DNA of 64,000 nt from positions 309,132,001 through 309,196,000 of the forward strand of contig CM097882.1 of the NCBI GenBank assembly GCA_044892505.1, written 5' to 3'. Position 1 is the stretch's first letter; every line of letters starts with the position of its first letter. Source of the DNA: Schmidtea nova (taxonomy: Eukaryota). This document shows positions 3,447 to 54,300 of this stretch, in pieces. The translations under genes were made by a program, and so were the position numbers. Below the pieces are notes generated by a model. That model was not told the origin of the DNA, searched no databases, and worked only from the letters and a program-made list of their open reading frames with translations.

Positions 3447-3714
3447 CAGTTTTTCTAAAAGAAATGAAAACTATAAGAAATGCCTAAATATAAATCCATG
3501 CTTACCATTAGATATTTTTACAACATCTTTTTTGCTGTTATAAATGTAATGAAATTGATATCAGTATATATACAGTTTAATCGTACTCACCAACAACAAT
3601 GGAAATCAAGTTTATTAATGAGTAATAAAGGTTTTAAAGATTCGATAAAGACTTGGTCAATACTCTAGGATTAAATAAACAAACATTTAGAGATAGAAAC
3701 ATTATTTATGGTAC

Positions 3715-6434: not shown

Positions 6435-6754
6435 GGGATATTTGAATAAGAATTTGAATTGTTGTATAACTCTTGCTGATGTTAAAAACAAATACCTATT
6501 CTTTACATTTGTTTTGGTACCAGATTTCGATTTAAATAAAAGTCAATTACCTCAAAACGGAAATTCGAGACTGGATATAAAATTCGCTAAAGCTATTGAA
6601 GAACCAGTACATGTAATAATATAGTTAAAAAATGAAATTCAAATTACTACAAATTGAACAGTACTGGTTTGAACTCTGTTTAAAAAACTATCAGAATAAT
6701 CTTTGTTCAAAGAACAAACAGTATAAATGAATTATTCAAAGTCAACCAATTTTC

Positions 6755-7123
6755 ATGGAATAAGCTTTATTATTTATTAATTAAATTTATTTATTTAGTT
6801 CTAATCAGTTTAATGGAATTGGAAAACAGATATTGGGTAATAAATTTATTGGAGTATATCCACTAGATAAAATCTCGTACTTAGATGCCAACTAAGTCAT
6901 AATCGTTAATATTCAATCATCTACCCTGGGCATTAAACATTGGATAGCTGTATATGTGAAACCAATCAAGATTTACACATTCGATCCATTTGGACGTTAC
7001 TATCCAGGTTTATTAGTTAGTAAACTTCAAACATTAGGTAAACCAATTGTATATAATCGAACTCGGTATCAAAGTTCATTACCAATTACTTGTGGTCAAC
7101 ATTGCCTTGCATGGCTTAATTGA
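6755..7123 (+). pseudogene. Maverick adenain-like cysteine protease pseudogene
   Basis: KFIGVYPLD...HWIAVY...FDPFG...YQ...TCGQHCLAW, homologous to 28713-29015. ATGGA micro-exon with a decayed donor and a TTAG acceptor at 6797-6798. Confidence 0.85.
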
Positions 7124-7169
7124 ATGTTAAAAGTGTAAATAATGTAGTTAAATAAATGTTTTTAGAAAA

Positions 7170-12986: not shown

Positions 12987-13171
12987 GTTATATCTCTAAA
13001 TGAATTAACTTATTTATATAAATAAATTACCACGATTCGGAAATAATAATTCTAATAATAAATCAATAAATTACAATATTCAAAAATCTCTATTTTACAA
13101 CACAATATTCAAACAATATTCTAATAATTATAATATTAAACGAATTTGTAATATTATTAATTCACATATAA

Positions 13172-13173
<2 letters not shown>

Positions 13174-13241
<68 letters not shown>

Positions 13242-18338: not shown

Positions 18339-18820
18339 TTGGAAAAAATAGATTTAAAAAATCAACAAACCTATAGAGCTGATCCAAGACATGGAAATTT
18401 ATCGGGGGGGCTTGCCTTTGTAAATAAGCATCCCGTTAAATCCAGTGGTGATACACAGTTGTTGTGTATTGACATCAACAACATGTATGGGTGGGCTTTT
18501 TTGTCAAAAGCTCCCAGAGGGTAATTTCAAATGGGTCACAAATGACAACTTATTAAGCGATATAATATAATAATGTACAACGATAGATTTACATCTAATT
18601 ACATATGGCTATTCCATAGAAGTAGAATTAAAGATACCGACAAAATTCTGGATTATTTTCCAGTTGCCACTGAAAAAATGTGCGTGCCACAATCAAAGGT
18701 GGAGAAGCTGTTGCTCACGCACAATCCCAAGAAGAGCTGAATTCTTCATTGGAGGGTTCTCCAGCTATTTATTAATATAGGGGTTAAAATTACAAAGGTA
18801 CATCGTGCAATTAAATTTTA

Positions 18821-18891
<71 letters not shown>

Positions 18892-21800: not shown

Positions 21801-22180
21801 CAATCTATTAGATACTTCTAATTATGATTCGGCTCATTCACCATATTCAAGGAACCTTGACTTGAATTTAAGGATGAAAGTAAAAGCCTTTGATATGATA
21901 AATGGGTATTTTTGAGGCCTAAATGCTACAGCATTAAGGACGTTGATTGTAGTATGAAAGCTTAAGGTGTAACAATCAAAGTTATTGGACTAACACGACA
22001 GTCGTATCTTGATTGTTACTTAAATAATATAATATATACGGTGCCCCAATTTCGCATCACCAGCAAAGATCATCAACTGTTAAGCGTAGAAAATAATAAA
22101 AGGGCATTAACAAATGCTAATGATAAGCGAAATTGTGTTTGGAAATATTAACGTTTGGCGTATGGGTACTATAGAGGGGG
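18339..22180 (+). pseudogene. Decayed Maverick protein-primed DNA polymerase B (C-terminal half), split by a hAT insertion
   Basis: GGLAFVNKH...IDINNMYGW, KFLNNS..GKTVEN, DRPSYIG, IIAGN|TDSF, ALTNANDKR, LAYG match 23024-24430; many frameshifts. Confidence 0.88.
19240..21722 (-). mobile_element. hAT DNA transposon with frameshifted transposase
   Basis: TIRs CAGAGGCGGATTT / CAGCGGCGTATTT; perfect 8-bp TSD GCTGGGAA. ORFs 20387-21343 and 19477-20502 contain FRGH..GNF, DSTPD, CDTRW and NASGERSFS. Confidence 0.95.
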
Positions 22181-22211
22181 TGGCACTATTATATATGACA
22201 ATGATGATGAT

Positions 22212-22711
22212 AGTAGAGTAGGGGGAGCGCCCAAGAACAGGAACAGACCCCCCCTCCCCCCTAAAAAATTTTTTTTTTAACCCCCCCAAAAAAAAATTGT
22301 TTAAATGAAGTGAATTTTTTAAAATTTTTTATTTTGTTTAAATTAAGTGAATTTTTTATTTTTTATTTTGTTTAAATGAAGTGAATTTTTTTTTAATTTT
22401 AATTTTTTGTTTAAATGAAGTCAATTTAATTTATTATTTTNNNNNNNNNNNNNNNNNNNNNNNNNNNNNNNNNNNNNNNNNNNNNNNNNNNNNNNNNNNN
22501 NNNNNNNNNNNNNNNNNNNNNNNNNNNNNNNNNNNNNNNNNNNNNNNNNNNNNNNNNNNNNNNNNNNNNNNNNNNNNNNNNNNNNNNNNNNNNNNNNNNN
22601 NNNNNNNNNNNNNNNNNNNNNNNNNNNNNNNNNNNNNNNNNNNNNNNNNNNNNNNNNNNNNNNNNNNNNNNNNNNNTTAATATTTATTTATTTTTCGGTT
22701 CAGTGGGAAAA
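22212..22711. repeat. Left TIR of the Maverick (partner 37018-37517); contains a G/C-rich tip and a partly masked minisatellite
   Basis: 22212-22440 and 22677-22711 are reverse complements of 37294-37517 and ~37021-37057; mirror N-runs of 236 and 230 nt. Confidence 0.9.
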
Positions 22712-23023
22712 NNNNNNNNNNNNNNNNNNNNNNNNNNNNNNNNNNNNNNNNNNNNNNNNNNNNNNNNNNNNNNNNNNNNNNNNNNNNNNNNNNNNNNNNN
22801 NNNNNNNNNNNNNNNNNNNNNNNNNNNNNNNNNNNNNNNNNNNNNNNNNNNNNNNNNNNNNNNNNNNNNNNNNNNNNNNNNNNNNNNNNNNNNNNNNNNN
22901 NNNNNNNAATAATAAAAACTTAGAAAAAATTTTTAAAATAATAATACTAATATTTCATCACAGTGTAAATAATACAATAAAGTAGAAAATTAATAAAAAC
23001 AAAAAGAAATAAAATACAAATAT

Positions 23024-26000
23024 TTATTGAAATAAATCATCTTCATCTTCGTCATCTTCTTGAATATCTTCATCTTCGGTAATTGAATCCCCCATAACTG
23101 TAAAACTTTCTCTACAATGTCCATAAGCAATACTTTTATTTTTCTCAACCCAAAGTCTCTTATCATCGAGGTTAGTAAGTGCAATTTTTGAAAACTTATT
23201 AGTAAAAATTTGATGATTTTTACTCACAAATCGAGACTGCTCTACTGAAACTATAGTATTATTTCTATAACAATCAAGATAAGACCGATGCTTCAGTTTA
23301 GTATCTTTCAAACAGACGCCTTTAGCCTTTAAACATTCCTTATCACCTAAAAGACTATAACATTTAGGTCTAAGAAAAACCCATTCCTTATATTTATGAC
23401 CCTTATTTTCGTCTTTAAACTTTCCTATAACAGAATCAAGTTTTTTCGAATATAAAGAATGACTAGGGTCGTAATTCGATGTATCCAAAAGACAATCTCT
23501 AACCATCGCAGGTAACAGAATATCAAGCTTACAATTCTTAATCTCCAAGAAAAAAGAGTCAGTATCGCCTGCAACTATATTAATCTCACAGTTGAATTCA
23601 TTGCGATATTTTTGCAATTCTTCATACTGGAGTTGATACATTCTAAGTTTAGATAAATCCAGTACACTTTGGCCAATGTAGCTGGGTCTATCTAAACACA
23701 CAGAGTCCTTATTAAGCAAGACAGAAATTAGATCATCATCAATCCTATAAGTTTTTCTAAAGGTAGGTTTTGATGTATATGTAATCAGTTTTGATGCTGA
23801 ATTACAAAGTCGTAAATTGAGTCTTTTCTTAAGATTTTCGACAGTTTTTCCATAAAGACTATTATTTAAAAGTTTGTAATAGTTTTTATCTAAAACAAAC
23901 GATAAAGCTGCCCTAAGTTCAGTGTTTGTATCAATATATTTTTTAAAGATGGGTTTCTGTTTGTACTGAACAGCCCGATGAACTCGTGTTATTTTAACAC
24001 CCAAAGAAACAAAAAGCTTGAGAAGCCTCCAATGAACAACATAGTTGAACTTTGGATAATGCGTAAGCATTAACTTCTCAACTTTAGAATTGGGAGCACA
24101 CATTTTCTCTGCTGCAACCGGAAAGTCATTTAATTTATCGTGAATTTCAACTGGGATTACCAAGTCAACTTCAAATGTTACACCGATTGTTAAAAGTTCC
24201 AAGTCAGCATCCATCAAATTAATTAATTTATTTAATTTTTTCTCATCATTAATCCATTTAAATTTACCACAAGGTAATTTTTGGCTTAAGGCCCAACCGT
24301 ACAAATTATTAATATCGATGTAAAGTAGTTCAGTCGTTTCGGAGGATACTACATGATGCTTGTTGACAAATGTCAAACCACCACGGATCCCCCCTTCGAA
24401 AAAATTATACATCTCCATATCCTGGAGCAATTCAATAAGCCCACGACATACCTGGAATACCCAAGAAATTCAACGGTTCTAACCTATTATGAGAAATTGA
24501 CTTGGCTCTAAACTGTTGAAAGAAATCAGCAAGAAGAAAGACATCAAGTTTTAAGTATATCATCATATAGTCACAAAGAGTTTGACAATTAGTTTCCCTC
24601 CAAATAACTAATGCCTTGTCGTATTCAGCCTGCTTAACACCCTCCCAGATTGGTGGCAACTCATAAGTGTTGTTAAGAATTTCTAACGATGTTGCAAAAT
24701 CATAAGGAAAAATACCCTTACAGTCAACAATAGTCCCGGTGAATTCAGATCTAGTCAAAGGTAATGAAGTCAATGTTTTAACCGCATCATTTAAACTGGA
24801 GTTAATAAATTGACAAGAATCGATGAATTTAATTGTTAAATCGCCGACTCTTGCAGACAAAGTAAGGAATTTTTCACTCGTAGTTGGAATACATGATATA
24901 TTCCAAGTTGAAAAGTTTGCCAATCCATATTTAAGAATATGGTGCATGTCATACCCTTTTAAATTATGAAACACAACCGGTAGTTCCTTACGAATCTGTC
25001 TAGTAAGATTACATTTTAAGCAAGCAGCTCCCAAGAATTCACAAGTGTAGTGATCATGGTCTCTAACCGGATTAACTAAACGATTTTTACAAAGATAACA
25101 ATTTGTAGATGAGGCAAAAGATATTTTATTTTCAAATGTCATAATAAGTGGTTTTTTGAAATTGTTTTTATAAAAAGGAAAAACAATTTCTTCACCTATA
25201 TTATTAATTTCAGCAAGAAAATTAGTAACGCAATCAAGACCTAAGAAACTCTTGTAAATCTTTTCACCAGTGAAATTATTTACAAGTAAAAGACCGGCAG
25301 ATATTGGGACATGTCTTTGAAAGTACTTATCATCAGCAGGTAAGATTGCCTCAAAATCGGCGTAAACAACAAAAGGTGGAGTAATTGTTTTGCCCCAATT
25401 ACTTAATGTCAAATAAGGATTTTTAGGCAAAGTATATAGAGTTGTGCCTAATTGATTTTTAGAACACAACTCTTGATGACGAACAAAAGAATCTTGATAT
25501 CTAAACCCATTCAAGCATCGATGGCACCATATACTTTGAATACGAGTACCAGATATCGATTTATTGTCAAGATTTAAAAGCCTATCAAGATTGGTTACTG
25601 CTATATAATGAAAAGAGTCACCATTTTGTAAAAGAATCAAGTTAATAGGGATTCCGTCTACTACTTTCGACCTATGAATTATATCAATACACGGATGTTT
25701 GAAAACTTCAGGCTTAGTGTCTAGAATTCCAGATTCATCATATGAAAGTACATTAATCGCATATCCCGGGTTTTTAGCTTCAAACTTTGGGATATTGCAA
25801 AGACGCATAGGCAAATCAGAAGGACTAAAGTTAACATCAGAAAGATTGTAATTACTGATCCTATGTTTATTTTTACGACCAGATATCTCATCATATTTAA
25901 TAATTACCAAAACAGAATAGATAAAGCACAAGTCATCAGAATTCTGAACATTTACAACACAATGTTTTGATTTTAAAGATTCAGGAGTGTCAATACCACC

Positions 26001-26894
26001 GTAACCTATCAACCTACTAATTTCAGAAAATTTGGTTAATATGAAATGAATTTCATTAATTTTATTAATTATCCAGTTACTACCTCTATTATTAATTAAT
26101 GTAATTTTTTCATTAAGAATATTAATGCCATCGTCTATAAAGGTATCTGTGACACGTTTTGCAGAGTTAGAAATAACTATAGTTTGAAAAGCACCATCTT
26201 TTTCAAACTCAACTTCGATGCAAAATTGAATTTTAACCGTTCCCATGGTTTCAATTACATTATTTAATTTATTAATTAAATTATCAGGTACAAACATGCT
26301 TTTTAAATTCAAGTTAGTCACAATCATTTTCACTATAGCATGTGATTTATTTAAATCAAATTTAACAACAGGTAAAATGGAGCCACCAACCTGTACTTCA
26401 GGAACTAAAGAGTATTTATCGTCACAAATTTTATCAAAAGAACCACCAATTTGAATATTATCGATAGGATCAAAAGTATCTACAACCACAAAATCAGAAA
26501 GAATATTTAAATCAAGAATGTTATCAGGAATGATATCATTATCAAGAATGGTATCATTATCAAGAATTTTATCATCAAGAATGGTATCATTATCAAGAAT
26601 GTTATCATCATCATCAGAAATTACAACTATATCTGAAGGAACAACCGAATGAACAATTGAAGAAATATCATCAGAAAGAACTGACTTGTTAATTTTGATT
26701 GGGATTGGATTATTTTCATTACATTTTCTTTTAATCGGTAATTTAAAAATTGATTTTTTAGATGTTTTAAATTGATCTAAATGATCGCAATGAGTATTGT
26801 AAAAGTCAATATACGAAGAGGACGAAGTAGATTTGCAAAAAGGACAAATGTAGTAGGTTTTACAGTTATGAGGGTATGCATAATATCTTTCCAT
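23024..26894 (-). pseudogene. Protein-primed DNA polymerase B, split by one frameshifting deletion at ~24432
   Basis: VVYADFE (Exo I), VRDHDH..C..C insertion, FHNLKGYD, FIDS, YLKLDV, DINNLYG, KLLNNSLYGK, AGDTDS, RPKCY. The junction SWA|IELL lacks ~8 conserved residues. Confidence 0.93.
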
Positions 26895-27180
26895 TAATTC
26901 ATGGCATTTTACATCATGAATTGTGGAGTTGCAATATTTTTGATATATATTGCCTATAAATTTTAAAAAATAATATAAAAATAATGATCAAAATAATGAT
27001 AAAAATTATGATAAAAATATTATGATAAAAATTATGATAAAATATCAATGATGTATATCAAGTGTGTATACACACATTCAATTCAAAATATCGTAATATA
27101 TATTTATTGATTATGATTGGTCAAAATAATTTAAAAATTACTATATAAACGACTTATAAAATTAAAATAATCATTAAAAA

Positions 27181-27709
27181 ATGTATCAACTGAAAAGTAA
27201 GATTAATTAATTTTAAATGATTATTTTTAAATTTTCTTTTTCTAGAATCGAAAAGAATGTCAAAACAAGAAATAATGAAGATTATACTTGAGGAAAATCC
27301 TATTTCTTCATCTAATTTGGCATTGAATTCACCAGTTCAATTCATGCAATACTCGATGGAGTATTTGAAATATCCGATCAAATATTCATTTAAAGTAATT
27401 AATTAAAAATTATAAAAATCTAATTAATATTATTTACAGGAACCTGTTACATTGAAACAATGTCAATTCAATATTCAGGTTGGAAAAATCGGAGAAACTG
27501 ATAGAAAGAATCTATCAGAAATTTTAATGCTAATAAATAAAGATATTCAATTCAACGAGGAATTCACATATATGAACTGTAAAAAAGAAACAGATTTAGG
27601 CAAATTAGATGATAATTCAATGTATCAAATTCAAATTATCTTACAAGGATTTAAACAAACTGAAAACGTGATAAAACCTATTTGGAAAATTATCGAATTT
27701 CATGAATAA
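27181..27709 (+). CDS. Three-exon accessory gene (exons 27181-27196, 27246-27394, 27440-27709); putative OB-fold ssDNA-binding protein
   Basis: GT-AG introns of 49 and 45 nt give one continuous frame MYQLKKSKRMSKQE...WKIIEFHE. C-terminal S.Y.I.I.L.GF...P.WKI pattern resembles viral SSBs; homolog at 2308-2526. Confidence 0.65.
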
Positions 27710-27805
27710 ACTCTTGTTTAATTTGTTCTTTATTTTTCTTATTTACATTAAATATATTTTAAAAATAATATATAAATATATCATTTATAAAATATATTTA
27801 TTATA

Positions 27806-28090
27806 AAAATTAATTAAATTCATATAAAAATCTATCGATTATTAATTAAATTCATATAAAATCTATTAATTAAATCTATATAAAAAATCTAACAATTATT
27901 AATTAAATTCATATAAAAATCTATCGATTATTAATTAAATCTATATAAAGAAAAATCTATCAATTATTAATTAAATCTATATAAAAATCTATCAATTAAA
28001 TTAATTAAATCTATATAAAAAATCTAACAATTATTAATTAAATTCATATAAAGAAAAATCTATCAATTATTAATTAAATTCATATAAAAA
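27806..28090. repeat. Tandem array of ~9 units of ~24-36 bp (TAATTAAAT-C/TC-ATATAAAAATCT)
   Basis: Direct inspection; a second 33-34 bp array lies at ~28440-28610. Confidence 0.85.
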
Positions 28091-28113
28091 ATAAACATTT
28101 AATCAATATATAT

Positions 28114-28323
28114 TTAATCAATATATAAATACTTACATTTAAGTATCGATGGTTTAATTTTCTTTGACATAATATTGCTTGATTTAATTTTCATTGGTAT
28201 AACATTGTTTGGTATAATTTTCATTGACATAATATTGCTTGGTTCAATTTTCTTTGACATAATATTGCTTGGTTCAATTTTCTTTGACATAATATTGTTT
28301 GGTAAAATTTTCTTTGTTGTCAT
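28114..28323 (-). CDS. Small ORF made of 10-aa repeats (MSKKIEPSNI)
   Basis: 30-bp tandem repeats in frame; preceded by a 49-nt GTAAGT...TACAG putative 5'-UTR intron (28335-28383). Confidence 0.45.
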   Translation of the reverse strand: MTTKKILPNNIMSKKIEPSNIMSKKIEPSNIMSMKIIPNNVIPMKIKSSNIMSKKIKPSILKCKYLYID

Positions 28324-28712
28324 TATTTAAAAATCTGTAAAAAATAAATTTAAAAATATTCATAAAAAATTAAACTTACTTACTTAAGTTAGCTTGTTCG
28401 TAAAAATGTCGTTTATTTAAACGAAATTATTTTTAAATTAATGTAATTTAAAATTAATTAAATATTTTACAATATGTAATTTAAAATTAATTAAATATTT
28501 TTACAATATGTAATTTAAAATTAATTAAATATTTTTACAATATGTAATTTAAAATTAATTAAATATTTTTACAATATTAAAATTACTTAAATATTTTACA
28601 ATATGCAATTTTAAATTAATAAATTCAAACATAAAAATTCACTTTTGTATTAGCGAATACCATAAATAGAAAAAGTCGTTTTATAATAAAAGTCGTTTTA
28701 TAATAAAAAATT

Positions 28713-29092
28713 TTATTTCATATATTTTAGCCAAGCTAAACAATGTTGCCCACAGGTTTTTGTCATTGGATTTTGATATCGAATTCTGTTATATTCTATT
28801 GGTTTTAACATTGACGATAATTTTTTCAATAATATCGGTGGATAATAAAATCCCATTGGATCAAACACGTATATTTTATCGGGTTTATTATAAATTGCAA
28901 GCCAATGTTCACCTTTGAGGTTTGATGATTGAGTATTGACAATCAATGCTTTATTCACATCTATATACGGTATTTTATCTAGAGGAAAAACTCCTAGAAA
29001 TTCCGATCCAATCAATTTTCTAGCAATCTGATCTACCTGAATTGAACTAAAATCAATAAAATTTAATTAATAAAAAATAAATCTTACTTCAT
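28713..29092 (-). CDS. Adenain-like cysteine protease (2 exons: 29088-29092 and 28713-29046)
   Basis: FLGVFPLD, NTQ...GEHW, FDPMG, YQ...TCGQHC. A 41-nt intron gives the N-terminus MNSIQVDQIARKLIGSEF. Confidence 0.93.
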
Positions 29093-29153
29093 TTACTTTT
29101 TTAATTAATAAAAAAAAATAGTTTATATTAAACGAGTATTGTTTGAGCTCTGC

Positions 29154-30380
29154 TCAAACCAGTATTGTTCGATTAGCTGTAATTTGTAATTCCTTTTCAA
29201 AAACTCCATATACAATTACAGAAACTGATTCAGTCAATGGTGTACCAAATTTAATATCAAGTCTTAGATTACCTTGTTGTGGTAATTGACTTTGATTTAG
29301 GTCAAAATCTGGAGCCAAAACGAAGGTGAAAAAAGGATATTTACTTTTCCAATCTGCTAAAGTAATACCGCAATTCATACTCTTATTCAGGTAACCAAGG
29401 TTACGGACAATAGATTGCATATAACTAGTACTACAAATATCATTTTCAAAATCTTGAGAATATTTTTCACGATAATCACTTCCTTTCGATAAAGTTAATG
29501 ATTTGACATTAAAATGATCGTAAATAGAATAAGTTTCAGTAAAAGAACCACTATGTCTTTTATTTCCTTGAAATGCTACAAGAATAAAGTTTGGTAATCG
29601 TCTATCGCCAAAGATTTGTTCCTTATAAAATGAAGAAGAACCCATTGGCAATGAAAATTCTACAACTTCCTTATTTCTTATTGGATAAATTGCATTTCTT
29701 GTACCAAGTCCAATTTGATGCCCAGCATAAACTGATGGTTCTACTCGAACTCTTCTAACCATTAATTTTGCCTCTAATAATTCAATTATAGGTTCAATTT
29801 TTGTACATGTTAAACTATTGGATGGATTTGATCTCGTCAATTTAATTTGAACACTAACACCTGGTAATAAATACTTGGGCTGTTCCATGAAATCGAAATG
29901 TAATGGAGAACAAATTGAAAATGGTTTTGATTTTGCAATCCATGCTTTTCTAGTAAGATCATGGTCATTGTATCCCATTGGAGTTAAAGATGTGTGTTTT
30001 GTATCACTATTGTAGTTGAGAATAGTTTCAATCATGGCTTTGTGTGTAAATGTATCATTTCCTCCTTCAACTTTAGTAGAATTGAAAATTAATTCGGCTT
30101 CTTTAAAAAGAGTTTGGAAAAAGAAATTGTTGGGAGTAACATCAGCATCCAATCCTAAATTTTCACCCGATTTGTTTACAACTTTGACCTGAAGAGATAG
30201 TAAAATATCGTTCAAATCTAAATATTCAGTTTGAGATCCATTGATGTAAAATTGAATAGATGATGTCCCAGCATCTGTAATTGAATTTGTTGGGTAAATA
30301 TCTTCAAATGCACCATGTTCAATTACTGCTTGTGGAGATGGTCTATCAAAAACACATAATTCAGATTTTGCACTAATCAT
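29154..30380 (-). CDS. Major capsid protein (double jelly-roll), intact 408 aa
   Basis: Position between protease and penton; SEL.VF...Q, YLDL.D..L, KLTRS, P.FILVAF, FTFVL.PD, G.LRLDIKF are typical Polinton MCP motifs. Confidence 0.88.
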   Translation of the reverse strand: MISAKSELCVFDRPSPQAVIEHGAFEDIYPTNSITDAGTSSIQFYINGSQTEYLDLNDILLSLQVKVVNKSGENLGLDADVTPNNFFFQTLFKEAELIFNSTKVEGGNDTFTHKAMIETILNYNSDTKHTSLTPMGYNDHDLTRKAWIAKSKPFSICSPLHFDFMEQPKYLLPGVSVQIKLTRSNPSNSLTCTKIEPIIELLEAKLMVRRVRVEPSVYAGHQIGLGTRNAIYPIRNKEVVEFSLPMGSSSFYKEQIFGDRRLPNFILVAFQGNKRHSGSFTETYSIYDHFNVKSLTLSKGSDYREKYSQDFENDICSTSYMQSIVRNLGYLNKSMNCGITLADWKSKYPFFTFVLAPDFDLNQSQLPQQGNLRLDIKFGTPLTESVSVIVYGVFEKELQITANRTILV

Positions 30381-30784
30381 TTTTCAAAAATTGTTCCATA
30401 TCCTTTCATTCTTTTGTTTATATGTTTCTTCATATTTCTTTTTCGTTTAAGAATTCCGCCATTTTGTTTATTTTCAGTTTTATTTTCGTTAAACACATCA
30501 GTCACTTTACTAATTACTTGTGGTAAATGATGAATCACATCGGGCAATGAGTCTTTAATTTCAGAAATGACATTGGATTTTAGTGCAGGTAAAATCTTTG
30601 AATTATTATTTAACACATCATTGGCAGTTTTCATACCAAAATTTCCAATACGTCTAAGAATTGGTAATGCAAATCTACCTATCGTTTTCAACCAACCAGT
30701 TCCATATTGTTTACCTACAAAATACGGTAATTCTCCACCTGATTGGCTGTTGCTATAGAAACTGATAATATCTGGATTATTCAT
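30377..30784 (-). CDS. Conserved Maverick ORF upstream of MCP; putative virion core or membrane protein with QxGG/QxGxG motifs
   Basis: QSGG, QYGTG, an amphipathic WLKTIGRFALPILRRIG segment, QNGG and a basic tail. Confidence 0.7.
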   Translation of the reverse strand: MNNPDIISFYSNSQSGGELPYFVGKQYGTGWLKTIGRFALPILRRIGNFGMKTANDVLNNNSKILPALKSNVISEIKDSLPDVIHHLPQVISKVTDVFNENKTENKQNGGILKRKRNMKKHINKRMKGYGTIFEK

Positions 30785-31795
30785 TTATTTTACGGAAATG
30801 TAATGTCAAGTAAGTTTTGTCTTCTTTTGCAAATTTAACTATTTTTCCACTGTCATCACGAATATTGATTTCAATATTGTTTATATATGTGGAACTGACC
30901 GGTAAATACATTGGATTTTTCTCAACAATTTGAACCAAATCACCCTTTTTATGTTTTTCAACCCAAACACATTTCAATAGGGGAACTGACATGTCACCAA
31001 CAAGAATTGGTTGAATAATATTCGTATAGATGAACATTTGTTGATGAAGTTTTAAAACTTGTGGATAATATACGCCATCAATAATTTTGTCAAAGAATTC
31101 TTGTTCAACTAATCCTAATGAATTTGCTAAATTCCTACTAAATTTGACACTAGTTATATCATCTTCAAGAATTAATTTAATTAATTTTCCTTCTTTAATA
31201 TCAATCACTTTAAATGGATGTGGATAAAAAGTTTCAATTTGATCAGATAATTCAGTAATATTATTTATTATTAAATCGTCTTTGAAATTATCTGTGTATT
31301 CAACAGGAAAAGTATAAGTTATAGTAAATCGTATAGTATCATCAAGTTTTTTATTTTCATTTGCTGGAATTTTAATTTTGTTTAATTCATCATTAAATGT
31401 CACAGCTTTTTCTTGAAACCCTAATTTTTTAGCTTCATCAACACTATCAAATATTATTTGAAATATTATTTACAATTTACATTTAAAATATTGCCATCAA
31501 TATACATTAAATAATAATTAGAATCGTGACTTATATCATATTCTTTCTTTTGTTGGTTAAAATTGAAATATTCATAACTAGAATGTAATTCATTTCTAGT
31601 AAATTTTATACTTGAACTATTATAAAATGGAAATTCATTGTACACAAAAGTAAAATCCATAAGAGCAACTTCCCAACTACCATCCAAATAAATAGGGTTT
31701 TGATATTCAACATTGAATTTTCCAACTTTATTATTGGGATGTGTCAATGGACAAGAATTGCTTGGTAAATTAACATAAAAATCTTTTTTAATCAT
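30777..31795 (-). pseudogene. Minor capsid (penton) paralog 2, broken by a stop plus frameshift near 31450
   Basis: FYVNLPSN...WEVALMDF and QMFIYTNII...VGD...PLL...MYLPV...IEINIRDDSG...LTLHFRK, paralogous to 31788-32825. Confidence 0.85.
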
Positions 31796-32825
31796 TTATT
31801 TTACGAAAATGTAGAGTCAAATGAGTCTTTGTATCTTTTGAAAATTTAATTAATTTTCCACTGTCATCACGAATATTGATTTCAATGTTGTTTATAGTTG
31901 ATGTTGAAATCGGCAAATACATTGGATTCTTTATTTCAATTTGTACAACTTCGCCTTGGTCATATTTCTTGATCCAAATTGATTTAAGGAGGGGAACTCG
32001 TACATCTCCAACAGTCACTGGTTCGATAATGTTGCTGTAAATGAACATTTGCTGATGAAGTTGTAAAATTTTGGGGATTTTTACACCAATTATTTCGGTA
32101 TCAGTATATGTTTGTTTCTGTAGACTCAGAGATTTGGTTAAATTTGAATCAAAAGTAATTTTTGAAATATTATCCTGAAGAATAATTTTAACCAATTCAT
32201 TATTGACAAGTTTCATTTCTTTAAATGGAGATGGATTAATTTTCATTAAATATCCTTGTAATTCCGGTAATGACGTTATGAATAATTCATCTTGAAAATA
32301 ATAATTATTAACAGTTTTAATGTCATAATTTATTAAAATTCCAAATTGTTCAAGACTATTATCATTCGTGAATTTTGGTAATTTTAAACGACAATGGTCA
32401 TTTTCACTTGTAATTGATATATTTTCCAATCCAAAACTTTTTGCATGTTCAAGATCTGGAAATGTAATTTTAAATGGAACATGTGGGCAAACAATCACTA
32501 AATAATTATATTTTTCAATAAATACATCAGTGTCTGAACTAGGTTGAGAAACTATAACTTGAATTGTTTTATTTTGATTATTAATTCTCAAATAACTAAT
32601 TTCTTGAATTTCTCTTTTAGTTTCAATTTGAATAAAAGAATTACTATAATACGGAAACAAATTATACACAAAAGTAAAATCAATCAAAGCAACTTCCCAA
32701 TCGTCATTACTATTTAAATAAATCGGATTTTGAAATTCTACATTAAAATTACTAGCTTCATTATTAGGATAAATAAGAGGACATGCATTGCTAGGTAAAA
32801 TCATATAAAACTGGTTCTCTTTCAT
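31788..32825 (-). CDS. Minor capsid (penton) paralog 1, intact 345 aa
   Basis: FYMILPSN...WEVALIDF...MFIYSNII...VGDV.VPLL...YLPI...IEINIRDDSG...LTLHFR, the Polinton penton pattern. Confidence 0.88.
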   Translation of the reverse strand: MKENQFYMILPSNACPLIYPNNEASNFNVEFQNPIYLNSNDDWEVALIDFTFVYNLFPYYSNSFIQIETKREIQEISYLRINNQNKTIQVIVSQPSSDTDVFIEKYNYLVIVCPHVPFKITFPDLEHAKSFGLENISITSENDHCRLKLPKFTNDNSLEQFGILINYDIKTVNNYYFQDELFITSLPELQGYLMKINPSPFKEMKLVNNELVKIILQDNISKITFDSNLTKSLSLQKQTYTDTEIIGVKIPKILQLHQQMFIYSNIIEPVTVGDVRVPLLKSIWIKKYDQGEVVQIEIKNPMYLPISTSTINNIEINIRDDSGKLIKFSKDTKTHLTLHFRKIND

Positions 32826-32830
32826 AATAT

Positions 32831-33916
32831 TTATTTAATCAATTGTTTTTCAGATATCCAACTTGGAGTTTCATAGCCATGCCATTTAACGTAATATTGT
32901 TTATATTTCCCATCAGTTTTGGTTTTTAAAATCTTTTGAATTCTAAAAACTGTGGGAGCTGGAATAACTTGAAGTTCTTGTTCGTAGAATTTACCCTCGA
33001 TTACATTGTTTTCATGATCGGAAATAGTATACATGACAGGATTTTGATTAGTATCAACATTTGAGATTTGATATACTTCATCACTCCAATTACTATCAAA
33101 ATTTTTGATGAATGGAGAAGCACTAATTTTACTCATTCTCACATAATCGCCTACTTTATATTTCGGTTTTTTATTAATTGATTTTAATCTATCTTTTATC
33201 CATCCGTCAAAATTATTATTTGAATAAACATCGATAGGTTTCATTTTATTTAATCCCGAATGCGGTGATCGATTGTAACTGGAAATAATTTTCGGTAAAA
33301 CATTTATCCACGTTTTGTTACCTTGATACACAAAATACTTTTTCAAGCGATCTCTTAAAGTACGATTAAATCTTTCAACATGAGCAGCTTTGAATTGAGA
33401 AAATACAGAATAATGATTGATTCCTTTGATCACTTCTTTTACTTTGCTGTTATAAAACTCTTTTCCTAAATTAAAATTAATTAATTTTTAAAAATTTAAT
33501 TTATTACCCAAATCAGGTTGTAAATTACGTGGCTTCCCATCTTTAAATAAAGATTCAATAGCCTCAGCCATTTCATTAGCAGATTTAGTTTTTGTTGGAA
33601 TAGCTCGTGCATAACGGCTAAAAACATCAATACAAGTCAAAATATATTTGTAACCCTTGTTAATTTTAGAATAAGGAATCATTTCCATTAAATCCATTTG
33701 CCATAAATCGTTACCCCCAAAAGTTTTATATTTGCGTGTAGGAAATCTTTTCAACATTGGTTTATTTAAACTCTATGCCAATTGATCAGATAACCATTTC
33801 TGAGTTTCATTCTTTGAACTTTTTATTCTTTTTGCCAATTTTTTGACTGAACCAAAACCATCGGGATCTTTTGGGTTTGTCCATATCGTTTTTATATTCT
33901 TCATGATTTTCTTCAT
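32831..33916 (-). pseudogene. Retroviral-like integrase with C-terminal chromodomain; 42-nt intron (33466-33507) and premature TAG (33773-33775)
   Basis: WQMDL, CIDVFSR, spliced QPDLG|KEFYN, VERFNRTL, YYVKWHGY...SW. The relative at 53620 reads QLAYSLNKP where this copy has TAG. Confidence 0.92.
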
Positions 33917-33978
33917 TAATACAACAATTTGTTAAAATATTTAAATCTATATTATGTTTATTCGGTTCAGAAATTTTA

Positions 33979-34308
33979 TTACCCATTTCTTAAAGATGAG
34001 ATTGCGCTTATTGCTGATAATACTATTGGAATTAATGTACCGAGAAACCCACCCTTTTGTTTATATATTATTTTTCGCATAAGATTTCTATTTTTGGTAT
34101 TCACTAATGATAAAAGTGAATTTTTATGTTTTTGTAGTTCAATTTTCTTTGATCTACTAATATTTACATTACCATGAACAATATTAAAAACGACTTCAAG
34201 TAAATCATCAATAACAAAGGGTGGGAAAGCTTGTAAAATTATCATTCGCTTATTTGTTGGAGCTTTAACCAAAGCATTAAAATACGGTAAACTACGTTCA
34301 AATTTCAT
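33979..34308 (-). CDS. Conserved Maverick ORF with a C-terminal QKGGFL amphipathic helix
   Basis: NIVHGNV.IS...KQKGGFLGTLIPIVLSAI; homolog at 53771-54064 (KQQGGF). Confidence 0.75.
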   Translation of the reverse strand: MKFERSLPYFNALVKAPTNKRMIILQAFPPFVIDDLLEVVFNIVHGNVNISRSKKIELQKHKNSLLSLVNTKNRNLMRKIIYKQKGGFLGTLIPIVLSAISAISSLRNG

Positions 34309-34338
34309 GATTAAAATTTTTGTATATATTTATTTCGT

Positions 34339-34524
34339 TTATAATTTTATCCACTTCTTAACTTGTTTCTTTCTTTTACCAATCTTTTTGGTAACTTTTT
34401 TAACTAATTTAGATTTTCGATCAACTTTTTTAAGAAGTTTTCGATCAACTTTTTTAATCAGTTTTTGATCAGCTTTTTGAACAGCTTCTTTATTTAACTT
34501 GACAATTACTTTTTTAAATGACAT
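34339..34524 (-). CDS. Small Lys-rich basic protein (possible DNA-condensing protein)
   Basis: 61 aa, very Lys-rich, tightly packed between core genes; a Lys-rich duplicated region occupies the equivalent place at 54123-54604. Confidence 0.5.
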   Translation of the reverse strand: MSFKKVIVKLNKEAVQKADQKLIKKVDRKLLKKVDRKSKLVKKVTKKIGKRKKQVKKWIKL

Positions 34525-34545
34525 TATTATTTCATTTATTTGTTT

Positions 34546-35168
34546 TCAATTTTGTTTATAAACCGTGACTCCATTTTCGTTAAATATATCCGTTCGGATA
34601 CGTAAATCATCAGGACATTGTTGAGTAAAATCAAAGAATAAATATCCATGAGGAACTTTAGTAGCATCTTGAAATGAATTAATTAAGAATTTCCTATCAT
34701 TAGGGTAAGCTTGTCTTGCTAGAAAATCAATAATTGTAGCATCTCTTGGGTTTCTGAATATAACCAAGTATTGAACATTTAAATTACGAGTTCTGTGACT
34801 ACCACCTTGATGAAATAAATTTTGAGTAATGAAAATTACAGTAACTCCTAAATGTCTACTAATTTTTGTGAATAAATTATTAAAATCTTTTCTTTATTTG
34901 CTTCTTGGTACAAATCATCGATAATTATAACATCGCCTTGTCGTAATCTAGATGACCAGTTTTTATCAAACCCTTTTATAATTGTCATTTTTAATTTACA
35001 GAATTGATCTTGAGTCAGTCCATGTTCTTCATCAGCTCCTCTATGCCAGTAAATTTTATTGAATTTAGATTTAAACATTTTTGATTGCAACAATTTACAT
35101 ACAAATAATGTTTTTCCACTACCACTTGGGCCCACTATTTGATAAACTGCATCATTTCTTAATTCCAT
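34546..35168 (-). pseudogene. A32/FtsK-like packaging ATPase with a 1-bp frameshift near 34890
   Basis: GPSGSGKT (Walker A), IIIDDL (Walker B), then in another frame LFTKISRH...IFITQNLF...RNLNVQYLVIFRNPRD. Confidence 0.93.
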
Positions 35169-35227
35169 TTTTATTTAATTAATTATTAATTAATTTAATA
35201 TTGTTTATATTTATTCAATTTATAAAA

Positions 35228-35710
35228 ATGATAAGTAATATTAATTATATGGGCAAGTGTTTAGTTCCAAACATGTTATTTCCTGTTGGGAAACCCCAGC
35301 AAGTTATAGATAGGAGCGGGAAGTACCCTATTTTATTTTTCAGATCGGGGAAATGCCGTGTAATGGGTTGTAAGCAACCGTTAAAACCAGATGATTTGAA
35401 ATATAAAATTTCAGATTTAAAAATTCAATCGATCACTATAACATTGGATATGGGTAAATCCATAAATTTATACGAATTGCAAAATAAAACAGAGTGCTGG
35501 TACGAACCCGAAATATTTCCAGCTTTGAGATTAATAAATTATAACCCAATTTGCATTAATATTTTTTCAAGTGGAAAAGTTGTAATATTAGGAATTAAAA
35601 CATTGGATTATTTTAATCAAGTAAATGAAATTAAAAATTATATTAATTCATTAATTAATAATGAATTAATTGATGAAAAATATCTCGATTTATTATTTAA
35701 TTTTGTTTAA
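35228..35710 (+). CDS. TATA-binding protein (TBP)-like, 160 aa
   Basis: Two TBP repeats: ISNIN..LFP..ILFFRSGKCRVMG and KIQSITITLDMGKSINLYEL..YEPEIFPAL..INIFSSGKVVILGIK. Confidence 0.85.
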   Translation: MISNINYMGKCLVPNMLFPVGKPQQVIDRSGKYPILFFRSGKCRVMGCKQPLKPDDLKYKISDLKIQSITITLDMGKSINLYELQNKTECWYEPEIFPALRLINYNPICINIFSSGKVVILGIKTLDYFNQVNEIKNYINSLINNELIDEKYLDLLFNFV

Positions 35711-35745
35711 ATACATTGTTATTTTACAAATCCATATTTTTGAAA

Positions 35746-36131
35746 ATGTCTAAAAGTAAGTATTATTTTTAATTAACTATATTATTAATATTTTTTATTT
35801 AGCTTATTTATTTGAAGTGGTCCTGAAGAAAATTCAAGAATTATATCCAAAAATAAAAGATTCTTTGGATTATTGTGCGCCAGAGTTATTGGTTCATAAG
35901 ATATATAAGCTTACTGGGATCAATATCGAACAATTGCTCGAGATTCACTACGATATGGTGCTAGGAGCTGGAGTCAAATGCGTTGAAAATTGCATAGTTT
36001 GCAATGATTCACTAAGAGTATCCTGTGTAAACGGATGTGCATGCTGCCATGATTTTAAAAGAGATCATTCGGTGCATATCTTAATGTCAGAAATGCGTAA
36101 AGCATATTATAACGACATTTATAATTTATAA
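35746..36131 (+). CDS. Cys/His-rich 'YCAPEL' accessory protein (2 exons: 35746-35755 and 35803-36131)
   Basis: 47-nt GTAAGT...TTAG intron in frame; CVENCIVC...CVNGCACCHD; homologs at 3222 and 38780. Confidence 0.7.
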
Positions 36132-36429
36132 TAAAGTTTTGTGATTTAGTTGTTCTTTATTTTTATTTCAAAGTTTTGTGATTTAGTTGTTCTTTATTAT
36201 NNNNNNNNNNNNNNNNNNNNNNNNNNNNNNNNNNNNNNNNNNNNNNNNNNNNNNNNNNNNNNNNNNNNNNNNNNNNNNNNNNNNNNNNNNNNNNNNNNNN
36301 NNNNNNNNNNNNNNNNNNNNNNNNNNNNNNNNNNNNNNNNNNNNNNNNNNNNNNNNNNNNNNNNNNNNNNNNNNNNNNNNNNNNNNNNNNNNNNNNNNNN
36401 NNNNNNNNNNNNNNNNNNNNNNNNNNNNN

Positions 36430-36563
36430 ACTATAGATCAAATTTTTTTATAAACAATAACACAATATTTCGGCACAGCCTTTATCAAGTGTGTAAATAC
36501 ACACTTGATAAAGGCTGTGCCGAAATATTGTGTTATTGTTTATAAAAAAATTTGATCTATAGT
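36430..36563. repeat. Perfect 134-bp palindrome (66-bp arms, 2-nt loop)
   Basis: ACTATAGATC...GTGTGTA-AA-TACACAC...GATCTATAGT; no mismatch found by eye. Confidence 0.92.
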
Positions 36564-37847
36564 CATTATGAGAATTATTGATAATAATAATAAAAAAAGA
36601 TCAAAGGTNNNNNNNNNNNNNNNNNNNNNNNNNNNNNNNNNNNNNNNNNNNNNNNNNNNNNNNNNNNNNNNNNNNNNNNNNNNNNNNNNNNNNNNNNNNN
36701 NNNNNNNNNNNNNNNNNNNNNNNNNNNNNNNNNNNNNNNNNNNNNNNNNNNNNNNNNNNNNNNNNNNNNNNNNNNNNNNNNNNNNNNNNNNNNNNNNNNN
36801 NNNNNNNNNNNNNNNNNNNNNNNNNNNNNNNNNNNNNNNNNNNNNNNNNNNNNNNNNNNNNNNNNNNNNNNNNNNNNNNNNNNNNNNNNNNNNNNNNNNN
36901 NNNNNNNNNNNNNNNNNNNNNNNNNNNNNNNNNNNNNNNNNNNNNNNNNNNNNNNNNNNNNNNNNNNNNNNNNNNNNNNNNNNNNNNNNNNNNNNNNNNN
37001 NNNNNNNNNNNNNNNNNGTTATTTTTCCCACTGAACCGAAAAATAAATAAATATTAATTAAAATNNNNNNNNNNNNNNNNNNNNNNNNNNNNNNNNNNNN
37101 NNNNNNNNNNNNNNNNNNNNNNNNNNNNNNNNNNNNNNNNNNNNNNNNNNNNNNNNNNNNNNNNNNNNNNNNNNNNNNNNNNNNNNNNNNNNNNNNNNNN
37201 NNNNNNNNNNNNNNNNNNNNNNNNNNNNNNNNNNNNNNNNNNNNNNNNNNNNNNNNNNNNNNNNNNNNNNNNNNNNNNNNNNNNNNNNNNNNNAAAATAA
37301 TAAATTAAATTGACTTCATTTAAACAAAAAATTAAAATTAAAAAAATTCACTTCATTTAAACAAAATAAAAAAAATTCACTTAATTTAAACAAAATAAAA
37401 AATTTAAAAAATTCACTTCATTTAAACAAAAAAATTTTTTTTGGGGGGGGGTAAAAAAAAATTTTTAGGGGGGAGGGGGGGTCTGTTCCTGTTCTTGGGC
37501 GCTCCCCCTACTCTACTGATGATAGACTGATACGAAGAGATGTCACCATGAAGAACGAGATGCCTTTGGACTTATTTGTCCATCCAGATTTCCCAGATAA
37601 AGAAGACGCAATGTTATTTTAATATATTTTGTTGAAAAATCAAAAATTTTGTTTTTAATTTCATTCATTATGAATTGTTCGTTATTATATGTTAAATATG
37701 ACTTGTTGGTCATTTTTGTATTAGGTAGTATAGAGTAAGATTTTTCTTAAATATGATTTGTTCACCATTTTCTTAAATTTGGCTTGTTTGTCATTTTTAT
37801 TACATAGTATATGGTTAACGTTTTGATCAGTATATCTTGTTGATTAT

Positions 37848-45885: not shown

Positions 45886-46782
45886 CTAATCTTCTATGGG
45901 TGGTTCTTTGAAATGTTCACCTTTATAAGGACTATGAATTATTCCCATTGTGAAAGCGGGACTGCTTGGTAAATGAGAAGTTACCTAAATTGCAGTAAAA
46001 TTTTATTATTGAAAATAAAAAATAATTAACCATTTCATGCTTATAATGTGCTGGACTAGGTGTTAATAGTCTCGAATCTGGACATTGGGCTCCAGAACCC
46101 ATTGTGTATTTTGGAGAAGCAGTAAGATATAAATCTGGAGAACCGACTTTATAATCAGCTGGCCCAGGCCCCTTGAAGGATATCATTTAAAATTTATTAA
46201 TACTTAATACTTACTTCTCTAGATTTATCATAATGGAGATATTGTCCCACAGAATATTTAGGACCGCTGGGTTTGTCACTGGTAATGTCAGGTGGTGGTA
46301 GTTTGTACTCATTCGGAGCTATTTAAATTATATTTTAATACCATCAAAATTTTTTTATCACCTGGTGTCACATTTGAAGTAAGTTCTGTTAAGTATTTTC
46401 CCATAACATGTTCAGGAGCTTTCGGCCATACAACATTATTCGCTTTAGTTATGTCATAATCACTTGGACCTGGGGTTACATCTTTTGCATATGGATGTAA
46501 AAGCTGTCCAATTGAGTATTTTGGAATAGAATCATAGCCATGATGAGTCAGTTTTGTGTCTGGTCCATATGCTGCTGGCCCTGGGCTTTGGTCTTGGCTA
46601 TGTGGGAAAGTTTTCAATCCGAAAGAATAAGCTGGAGCCTTAACATGAACACTTCTTATATCATGACCTTTTTCGCCGACTAATGTTGGTGCACCATAAA
46701 TAGGACCTGGATTTGCAAACTGGGCAGCAATCGGCATTCTAGGTCTTGTGTAATTATAGCCCCTGACTTCATCTTTTGCCAT
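45886..46782 (-). CDS. ODF3: ODF3/SHIPPO1 (CIMAP1)-family PGP-repeat ciliary protein, 254 aa; exons 46362-46782, 46215-46318, 46031-46171, 45886-45984
   Basis: PRMPIAAQFANPGP..Y..P.LVG..GHD.RS...KAPAYSFG and repeated (S/T)PGP..Y motifs; three GT-AG introns (43, 43, 46 nt) keep the frame. Confidence 0.9.
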
Positions 46783-51349: not shown

Positions 51350-54300
51350 CATTTATTTATTTATGAAGTTTATACATTAGCCATGCAAGACAATGTTGAC
51401 CACAAGTAATAGTTAGTGTATATTGAAATTGAATTTTGTTATATTCAATAGGTGCACCAATTGATGATAGTTTTTTGACTAAAAGTGATAGATAATAGTA
51501 TCCCATGGGATCAAAAACATATCTTGTCTGGTTTTATATAGATTACAATTCAATGTTCCTAATCGAGAGGAGATGATTGTGTATCGACAACATTGGTTTG
51601 ATTGATATTCAAATTGGGAATTTTATCTAATGGGTACACTCCAACAAACTCATTTCCCAATATCTGAGCACTTATTTAATTTATCTGTACAGAACTAAAT
51701 CAATAAATCTTTGATAGAAATCAAATACTTACTCCATGATTATTTTTATATTTTTTTTTATTTATCTGTACAGAACTAAATCAATAAATCTTTGATAGAA
51801 ATCAAATACTTACTCCATGATTATTTTTAAACCTAATTAGCTGCATTTATACTAAGTTCAAATCAGTATTCTTTGAACAAAGTTCAAACAAGCACAGTTC
51901 GATTTGCAGTAATTTGTACTTCATTTTCAAATACTCCGTATATTATGACATGTAACGGTTCAGTAATAGCTTTAACAAACTTTATATCTAATCGCAAATT
52001 TCCATTTTGAGGTCATTGACTCTGATTCAAATCAAAGTCAGGGGCCAAAACAAATTTGAAGAACGGATATTTAGTTTTAAATTCATCAAGAGTTATACCG
52101 CAATTCATATTTTTATCCAAATATCCCATATTTCTCACAATTGATTGCATATATGTAGCACAACAATTATCATTATCGAAATCCTGAGTAAATAATTTTC
52201 TATTATTAGTATTTTTCGATAAAGTAAGATATGTAACTCTAAAATGTTTGAAAATTGAAATTGGAGCAGTATGTGATTCATTACATTGATTTTCACTTTG
52301 AAATGTGACGAGAATAAATTTAGGTATTCTTTTATCACCAAATATTTGTTCCTTAGAGAATGATGAGACACCTTTGGCAATTGCAATTTGTACGATATAA
52401 TATATTCATTAAAATCGAAAGATCAACTTGAACTCTTCTTACCAATAGTTTTGCATGAATTAATTGACATATTGGTGCTCCGGCAGTACAATTTAGCGAT
52501 AGAGCAGAATCCGATATTTCCAACCAAATGTGAACATTAACACCTGTAAATAAATATTTCGGCTGATCCATAAAGTCTAATTTTAATGATAAACACGTAG
52601 TAAATGTTTTTGAACATTTAATCCATTTTTTCTTATCTTCATCACTTCCATAACAACTATTACTCGGCAAAATTGTATTGAAATTTACTTTACTAAGTAT
52701 TTTGCTGATATTCATGTTGGAGTTGGATACTCATGCCACTTGACATAGTATTGTTTATCCTTACCTACTTTTTTGAATTTAAAACTTTTTGAATTCTGAA
52801 TACTTTAGGTGGAAGAATAACCTGTAATTCTAACTCGTAAAATTTACCTGCTACTTCATTATTTTTATAATCTTTAATCACATACATAATAGGATTCTTT
52901 TTTGTTTTAATGTTTGATATTTTAAATACTTCATCACTCCAATTTGCATTGAAATCTTTAATAAATAGTGATGCGCTAATTTTAGATATGCGCACATGAC
53001 CACCGAATTTATATTTAGGTTTCTTAACTTTTTCTTCTTTGCTCGATAGCCATAAATCAATTTCATTTTTAGATGAAATATCTACAGGTCTTAATCCATT
53101 TAAATTTCTATGTGATAAATGATTATAACTTTGTATAATTTTTGGCAAAACATTTATTCAAGTTTTATTACCTTGATGAACAAAATACTTTTTGAGTCTA
53201 TCCCAAAGTGTTCGATTAAATCTTTCTACATGAGCTTCCTTGTATTGTTGAATGTACAGAGTAATGATTTATTTTAATATAATCCGTTATTTTCTTTACT
53301 TTACTGTTGTAAAATTCTTTACCTAAACATTGTCAAATAAATATTAATTATTGATAATACCTAAATCAGTTTGTAAATTGTTTGGATGTCCAACCGCAAA
53401 AAACGTTTTTATAGCTTCAGCCATTTCATCAGCAGACTTTGTCTTGGTTGGAATAGCACATGAGTAACGACTGAAAACATCGATACTTGTTAAAATATAC
53501 TTGCATCCTTTGTTGATTTTTGAATATGGAATCATTTCCATTAAATTCATTTGCCATAAATCTTCAATTCCAAATGTTTTATATGCTCTTGTAGGAAACA
53601 ATGTCAACATTGGTTTGTTCAAACTGTATGCCAGTTGTCCTGATTACCAGTTTTGAATCTCCTGTTTTGATTTCAGAACTCTTTTCTTTAGCTTTTCGAC
53701 TCCGCCTAAACCGGCGGGGTCTTTTTGGGTTTGTCCAAATTTTCTCCATTACAGCAAGATGATTTAAAGTTTAAGTTAAGATTTGGCAATGATTGTCCCA
53801 TTGTTTATGACGGTTTTCCAAATAAACCAGCACCTTCCAATATGATAATGTAATAAAACCACCTTGTTGTTTATATATGAATTTATGCATTGATTTTCGA
53901 TTTTTGGAATTTACGAGTGATAACAATGGCTTTTTATGTTTTTTCAAAACTATATTTTTAGATTTACTAATCTTAATTTTGCCTTTGACAACTTTCAATA
54001 AAATGGCAACTAAATCATTAATGACGAAATTAGAAAAATATTGTAATATAGTCATTCTTTTCATGCTTGGAGCTATTATTAATGATGTGAAAATGCATGA
54101 CTTCGATGAATAGTTTTATTCTTAGATTTTCGATTTTGTTTCATGTTATGAGAAATTAAATTTTTGTTGGGAGTATTTGCTACAAGTTTTTTCAATGGTG
54201 TATAACTGGTTTTTTCTATCTGTCTTTCTATTTTCTTTTTGAGTATTTTTTCTAATTTATTTTAATTTTGATTGTTTAAAATTTTTAGAAATCTTTTTAT

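Follow-up and report, generated by a model that had tools for sequence, protein, structure and literature searches.

Can a virus-like Maverick (Polinton) depend on the spliceosome of its host for the expression of its core genes? This question is raised by a 64,000-nucleotide stretch of the Schmidtea nova genome (contig CM097882.1, positions 309,132,001 to 309,196,000), hereafter the window, in whose coordinates positions are given. The window holds a complete Maverick in which a first-pass annotation, made from the letters alone, had proposed six GT-AG introns of 41-49 nucleotides (nt). By our analysis the element is a true Maverick, in which the protease intron is old and that of the integrase young. 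With a probability of roughly 0.85, we read the segments as true spliceosomal introns of the major GT-AG type, belonging to a Maverick clade whose genes the host transcribes in its nucleus and whose transcripts it splices.

22212..37517, no strand: complete Maverick/Polinton, 15.3 kb; terminal inverted repeats (TIRs) begin AGTAG; 6-bp target-site duplication GATGAT

The TIRs are identical across the terminal 49 nt compared, and GATGAT flanks both sides. By every defining feature tested, the element is a member of the Maverick family.

Six short segments resembling host introns

The exact ends given by the first-pass annotation were confirmed for all six segments.

27197..27245, plus: intron acc1.1, 49 nt, phase 1, 16 nt after the ATG; without homologue support
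27395..27439, plus: intron acc1.2, 45 nt, phase 0, with in-frame stops; its support is the frame alone
28335..28383, minus: candidate intron in the 5' untranslated region (UTR), 49 nt, ending 11 nt before the ATG of a repeat open reading frame (ORF); sequence evidence only, the weakest of the six
29047..29087, minus: protease intron, 41 nt, phase 2; kept in 5/5 close relatives
33466..33507, minus: integrase intron, 42 nt, phase 1, splitting the second codon downstream of the second catalytic Asp; apparent subclade gain
35756..35802, plus: acc3 intron, 47 nt, phase 1; the remnant intron at 3455-3505 occupies the corresponding position

Each segment starts with GT, ends with AG and lies on the expected strand, the lengths being 49, 45, 49, 41, 42 and 47 nt. 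Their AT content is 0.88-0.95, against 0.66-0.74 in the neighbouring exons, and they agree with the U2-type consensus (GTAAG or GTAAT donor, YAG acceptor behind a T-rich tract). Loose YTRAY-like branch-point words occur in 4/6 segments; they are uninformative in AT-rich DNA and are missing from one of three host introns too. All five coding segments carry an in-frame stop if retained, and skipping them selects the longest of the three downstream frames each time (52, 89, 110, 210 and 108 residues). For the protease, the integrase and acc3, removal restores a conserved protein and the position is conserved as well.

A host gene in the same window served as the size reference.

45889..46782, minus: host ODF3-like gene; introns 46361-46319, 46214-46172 and 46030-45985

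A spliced database protein with 97% identity positions these host introns at 43, 43 and 46 nt, which bears out the claim that the sizes match; most named matches of ODF3 are tapeworm proteins (42-49% identity), which marks the host as a flatworm. In S. mediterranea the short-intron peak lies at 45-85 bp (PMC13594981).

The earlier statement that the coding introns restore the frames holds locally, but not over whole genes. The window copy is damaged: integrase exon 1 contains a stop near 33773, and the reading frame is broken in the polymerase, in the ATPase and in the second minor capsid gene. These three breaks (the one in the minor capsid gene lies at 31466) were considered as introns and rejected; they are frame breaks. 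Four DNA runs (from at most three samples of one study) were compared over 28640-36190, a range that leaves the acc1 and UTR introns and the polymerase outside. Between 10,402 and 29,702 contigs per run match this range, and the Maverick family is therefore large. At the integrase stop site, 88-90% of the summed depth is unlike the window copy. Of the 10 common indels listed, 2 fall in the protease intron, 4 in intergenic DNA and 4 at the window copy's own frame breaks; intact coding sequence contains none of them.

A protease intron that appears to be old

28713..29092, minus: adenain-type maturation protease, 5-nt first exon (29088-29092) and 110-aa second exon; Pfam Peptidase_C5
51695..51732, minus: protease intron of a decayed copy, 38 nt
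6760..6798, plus: 39-nt protease intron of a third remnant, whose donor has decayed to AT; micro-exon at 6755-6759

Relatives were obtained by a profile scan of metagenome contigs, which gave 151 integrase loci, the best 80 of which were analysed; about 23 close loci have the gene order of the window element. Scans of viral contigs returned nothing or only 29%-identical loci, and a prokaryote scan one weak match. The protease gene is reached in five close relatives (L009, L010, L013, L018 and L019; 47-57% protease identity), which amount to four lineages because L018 and L019 are 99% alike. In all five, a first exon of 5 nt is followed by a GTAAG donor that opens an AT-rich segment of 37-47 nt; the segment closes with AG and keeps one phase throughout. 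The three window copies share the first-exon length and this phase. Across these eight copies, the intron takes any length modulo 3 (37-47 nt) and GTAAG is kept in 7/8.

For the decayed copy, the introns reported at 53323-53360 (integrase) and 51695-51732 (protease) indeed have the positions and phases of those in the complete element. The remnant intron reported at 6755-6798 is present, but its correct span is 6760-6798, the first five nucleotides being the micro-exon. The decayed copy also contains tandem duplications at 51760-51841 (about 82 nt, repeating the protease first exon and intron) and at 54120-54601.

Sequence comparison thus presents the protease intron as an old clade marker that reaches well beyond this genome, and very probably as older than the split of elements now about 50% identical. 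The intron motif was found at 0/20 distant protease loci; a script that tested for an in-frame ATG confirmed one at 14 of these, and at the remaining 6 it lies just beyond the script's window.

If the intron were retained, the RNA would be read for two codons and then stop (8/8 copies). The next in-frame Met lies at exon-2 residue 55-78, beyond the invariant His47, in the window copy, L009, L013 and L018/L019. Because unspliced RNA stops after two codons and the next Met is past the catalytic His in 4/5 lineages, protease output would depend on splicing. Exon 2 itself is open over 110-120 residues in the window copy and all five relatives.

The database proteases nearest to the window copy mostly have odd N-termini, either an AT-rich lead read through or an internal start, which is what gene calling on a split gene would produce. 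Among the eight proteases grouped around the window copy, one reads through an intron-like lead, three have AT-rich leads ending at the acceptor position, one has an internal start and one, P0152, starts continuously. These N-termini uphold the earlier remark that ORF-finders fragment such genes.

L018 and L019 show a second candidate intron near the protease C-terminus. A further candidate at 7832-7866 in L010 was rejected, as the following gene has its ATG there, and the L009 homologue of that gene is continuous. The ORF following the protease in L009 (5990-6242) and L010 (7850-8310) resembles a DEDD-type exonuclease, judged by eye from a DFQG motif.

An integrase intron that looks young

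32831..33904, minus: rve integrase with a C-terminal chromo-like domain, two exons; Pfam rve on both exons; 508 homologues; in-frame stop in exon 1 near 33773
53323..53360, minus: 38-nt integrase intron of the decayed copy, matching that of the complete Maverick in position and phase; the 8-nt direct repeat TTTAGGTA spans both ends

The best 120 of the 508 integrase homologues were aligned at the intron site. In 116 of them the alignment crosses the site and is free of gaps within 6 residues of it, the split codon always encoding Gly, while the other 4 do not span it; among the 80 metagenomic loci, 77 are continuous at the site and 3 end before it. The gap-free homologues therefore fix the intron boundaries and show that the intron is not general. 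Hence the earlier picture of a long-adapted, splicing-dependent lineage suits the protease intron, present in 5/5 close relatives, but the integrase intron is not lineage-wide. Since the ranking of loci favours whole genes, split relatives may be among the 71 loci outside the best 80.

In quick trees computed without bootstrap, both window integrases group with three close database proteins that begin after the junction (P0009, P0039 and P0001), with a support of 93, or 84 on shared columns only. The sister of this group consists of the continuous P0048, P0003 and P0005. The fourth non-spanning integrase, P0065, comes from a short contig and is placed elsewhere in the tree. P0001 is annotated as a protein with a Prp19-like N-terminus fused to exon 2 of a related Maverick integrase, and is probably a gene-prediction chimera.

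From the alignments and trees, the integrase intron looks like a gain in one subclade. TTA GGT stands at the site in 7 of the 22 closest intronless loci and constitutes an AG/GT proto-splice site. This site, together with the 8-nt direct repeat, is what would be expected of a gain by short duplication or break repair.

Spliced introns or chance spacers

Could the segments instead be AT-rich insertions made after integration, or chance GT-AG spacers in dead copies, that are never spliced? A blind scan for intron patterns was run over 22908-36200 and over block-shuffled DNA (100 shuffles). The strict GTAAG pattern gave 5 matches (4 distinct introns) against 0.1 in shuffled DNA. The loose pattern gave 11 overlapping matches, all six segments included, against 4.5 +/- 2.0 (maximum 12). 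The loose pattern thus arises by chance and the window copies are damaged, which favours the spacers, and for the UTR segment and acc1.1 the idea may hold. For the set it is scarcely credible: the same position and phase recur in about 50%-identical elements with an open exon 2, and the integrase motif is exactly restored.

Several observations count against spliced introns and have to be set beside the conservation. First, the loose pattern is frequent by chance in the AT-rich DNA of the window (4.5 expected, 11 seen), and acc1.1 and the UTR segment, lacking homologue support, rest on sequence and frame. Second, L010 has a Met at exon-2 residue 7, so that splicing could be bypassed there. Third, P0152 (cluster mate P0324) is nested in the intron-bearing protease group and starts continuously, as do P0178, P0181, P0189 and P0191 of a wider, weakly resolved group; such continuous starts reflect either spliced RNA, intron loss or a place outside the clade. 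Fourth, the intron interiors are not less alike than the exons in several pairs, a comparison in which low-complexity AT inflates identity. Fifth, the support for the integrase subclade is moderate (93, 84), and its three database members are proteins without DNA. Finally, no transcript was seen: the runs matching 27000-36190 were four DNA-like runs from one study, none of them an RNA run, and they are neutral on expression. Since no RNA run matched the element, we infer splicing from the positions, phases, conservation and frame logic of the segments, which are observed directly. Because the introns are short, AT-rich and host-like, their splicing is expected to be constitutive and efficient. 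No joint matching an intron was found among 15 of the 674 joints in the DNA runs (28640-36190), and intronless copies may still exist.

Introns near gene starts

The remaining segments lie in the accessory genes or just before the repeat ORF.

27181..27709, plus: accessory gene acc1, three exons, no known family; homologue in L013
28114..28323, minus: small lysine-rich repeat ORF, about 69 aa
35746..36131, plus: accessory gene acc3, Cys-rich, 10-nt first exon, ATG at 35746
3455..3505, minus: acc3 intron of a remnant, 51 nt, missed by the first-pass annotation

The acc3 intron shares its position and phase with this 43%-identical remnant. The L013 homologue of acc1 has an intron of its own, at a position that, in a weak alignment, matches neither window acc1 intron. 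In the 5' part of the L013 polymerase (12562-12909, minus), three segments (45, 53 and 49 nt) join four stop-free pieces in frame. The window polymerase has an acceptor-like site near 26955 and no clear donor. By contrast with these split genes, the ATPase is continuous in 13/13 close relatives, and stops occur in 0/9 major-capsid and 0/17 minor-capsid matches.

Four of the six window introns lie within 16 nt of an ATG, for which a rough, post hoc estimate under even placement is about 7e-5; the first intron follows the ATG by 19 nt in the L013 polymerase and by 31 nt in one L005 gene. Introns so placed might have been selected to license Maverick RNA as host-like, aiding export, stability and escape from the silencing of intronless or PIWI-interacting RNA (piRNA)-targeted transcripts. 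In support, introns protect human transgenes from HUSH (PMC8770142), and planarian Polintons are piRNA targets of SMEDWI-2 (PMC8532177). However, the longest transcribed genes, those for the capsid proteins and the ATPase, have no introns; tolerance, or the RNA-mediated loss of 3' introns, would likewise produce a 5' bias, and AT-rich gene starts ease detection. We therefore regard selection as possible, though rather unlikely. The bias itself may reflect an expression benefit or tolerance at the N-terminus; it fits expression benefit or silencing escape, and equally neutral tolerance or detection bias. A broader proposal is doubtful: that the protease-start intron is ancestral to one entire clade of capsid-coding elements and selected, the RNA passing as host RNA, escaping piRNA or intronless-RNA surveillance and tying virion maturation to splicing, while ORF surveys score the elements as broken.

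Splicing might also act as a regulatory switch, with intron retention or piRNA-guided control timing the protease and the integrase. Retention would abolish both products, and the protease GTAAG donor is kept in 7/8 copies. The Drosophila P element offers a precedent for splicing control of a transposase. Yet the splice sites are strong and host-like rather than weak, and the integrase intron is missing from nearly all relatives. The first-pass annotation had suggested that splicing could regulate integrase and protease; nothing was found that shows regulation, and we consider a switch improbable.

As to origin, the introns could have been seeded by an introner, an intron-generating transposon, as in dinoflagellate Maverick-like elements (PMC11957031). 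Within the window's six, 12/15 intron pairs are no more alike than shuffles, which is evidence against an introner. One pair of the 15, acc1.1 with the UTR segment, exceeds every one of 300 shuffles in score and two more pairs reach p of about 0.01-0.02, but low-complexity AT can yield high scores, lengths and interiors vary, and no inverted repeats were noted. An introner source is thus very improbable.

We favour spliceosomal introns gained at different times. The host RNA polymerase II would transcribe the integrated Maverick, and the host spliceosome would remove the short, intron-defined introns. The protease intron would have come first and been kept through many copying rounds; that of the integrase would have been gained later, in one subclade, at an AG/GT proto-splice site already present in intronless sisters, making the integrase of this subclade likewise dependent on splicing. 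Accessory and polymerase genes would have gained further introns, and capsid and ATPase genes none.

Relation to known systems

Introns are ordinary in DNA transposons in general. Adenoviruses, related nuclear double-stranded DNA viruses with an adenain protease and a protein-primed DNA polymerase B (pPolB), rely on host splicing; they use long, alternatively spliced units and are not known to have an integrase or short intron-defined introns in single genes. Vertebrate Mavericks resemble the window element in their TIRs, 6-bp target duplication, pPolB, integrase, ATPase, protease and major and minor capsid genes. Barreat and Katzourakis 2021 (PMC8097293), however, report that intact vertebrate elements lack introns, consistent with Kapitonov and Jurka 2006, and take intronless ORFs as their definition of intact, whereas the window element has two split core genes, protease and integrase. 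Intronless core ORFs are a descriptive trait rather than part of the family definition, and the window element lacks this trait. Caenorhabditis Mavericks with wasp/krma cargo are also invertebrate elements that carry intron-containing genes, but there introns occur in captured host cargo and not in the core genes (Widen et al., bioRxiv 10.1101/2022.07.12.499685), unlike the protease and integrase of the window.

Two other systems also have introns. Dinoflagellate maverick-polinton-like elements contain spliceosomal introns, as the window element does; theirs are young introner copies, mostly acquired after integration, whereas the window introns are mostly dissimilar and one is conserved across deep divergence (PMC11957031). 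In Ginger1 transposons the Gypsy-like integrase gene is interrupted by 1-4 GT-AG introns, some of them conserved from one family to another; unlike the window Maverick, these transposons are cut-and-paste elements without polymerase or capsid (PMC2836005).

In the literature searched, no report of conserved introns in Maverick core genes was found; Repbase, Kapitonov and Jurka 2006, Pritham 2007 and supplements lay outside the search, so prior annotation is possible. Likewise, the available parts of PMC10748475, PMC8502044, PMC11296320, PMC12220804, PMC6431247, PMC5718144, PMC5803895 and PMC11244446 contain nothing on spliceosomal introns in these genes. Since surveys require continuous core ORFs for intactness (PMC8097293), spliced lineages would be counted as fossils and their proteases mis-called in databases. 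With an old clade-wide intron beside a young one that has intronless sisters, intron gain in a virus-like element becomes amenable to study. Dependence on nuclear splicing, if real, bears on the transposon versus virus lifestyle of Mavericks, and in a planarian host RNA interference and piwi knockdown data make function testable.

Other genes of the element and its surroundings

23024..26987, minus: protein-primed DNA polymerase B; Pfam DNA_pol_B_2 (PF03175) 3e-18; frame break near 24440-24517, two frames against the L013 polymerase
29154..30380, minus: major capsid protein (MCP), double jelly roll, no intron; model pLDDT (predicted local distance difference test) 82; Foldseek matches to iridovirus, mavirus and PBCV-1 MCP, E 2e-15 to 4e-15
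30377..30784, minus: conserved 135-aa ORF between the minor and major capsid genes
30777..31795, minus: second minor-capsid paralogue; frame break near 31466 in the window copy
31788..32822, minus: minor capsid (penton) protein, single jelly-roll, no intron; model pLDDT 84; mavirus penton E 5e-10
33979..34308, minus: conserved small core-like ORF; Pfam Adeno_PX match
34546..35168, minus: packaging ATPase; P-loop matches including Pox_A32 (below its cut-off); gene order as in relatives; frame break near 34850-34890
35228..35710, plus: TBP-like ORF; Pfam TBP 7e-17; PDB TBP 1e-12

Pfam gives no family name for acc1, acc3 or the capsid genes. In the polymerase (24432-26987, minus), an Asp-rich repeat occurs at the N-terminus, and one stretch resembles Endonuclease_7 at a Pfam value of 2e-4, which is below cut-off. 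The minor capsid gene is tandemly duplicated in the window (30777-32822, minus), L002 and L077, and single in L005, L009 and L013. The TBP-like ORF is common to the relatives L013 (2175-2621) and L005 (213-693), and its best PDB matches are archaeal TBPs; no report of TBP in Mavericks was found in the literature searched. A short TAAA(A)CGAC-like motif, noticed by eye, recurs upstream of acc1 (27146-27155), upstream of the UTR intron (28395-28404) and twice after the protease (28676-28702), and could possibly be a promoter element.

Further decayed Maverick pieces lie at 3261-3505, 4997-5683, 6436-7126, 16795-16982, 18376-19252, 21742-22202 and 51372-54856. The complete Maverick directly adjoins the polymerase remnant of another Maverick, a remnant that is interrupted by a hAT element (19477-21463). 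The window also contains two Gypsy-type long terminal repeat (LTR) elements with near-identical LTRs and a Tc1-like transposase (7815-13175, 58338-63420 and 49983-50963).

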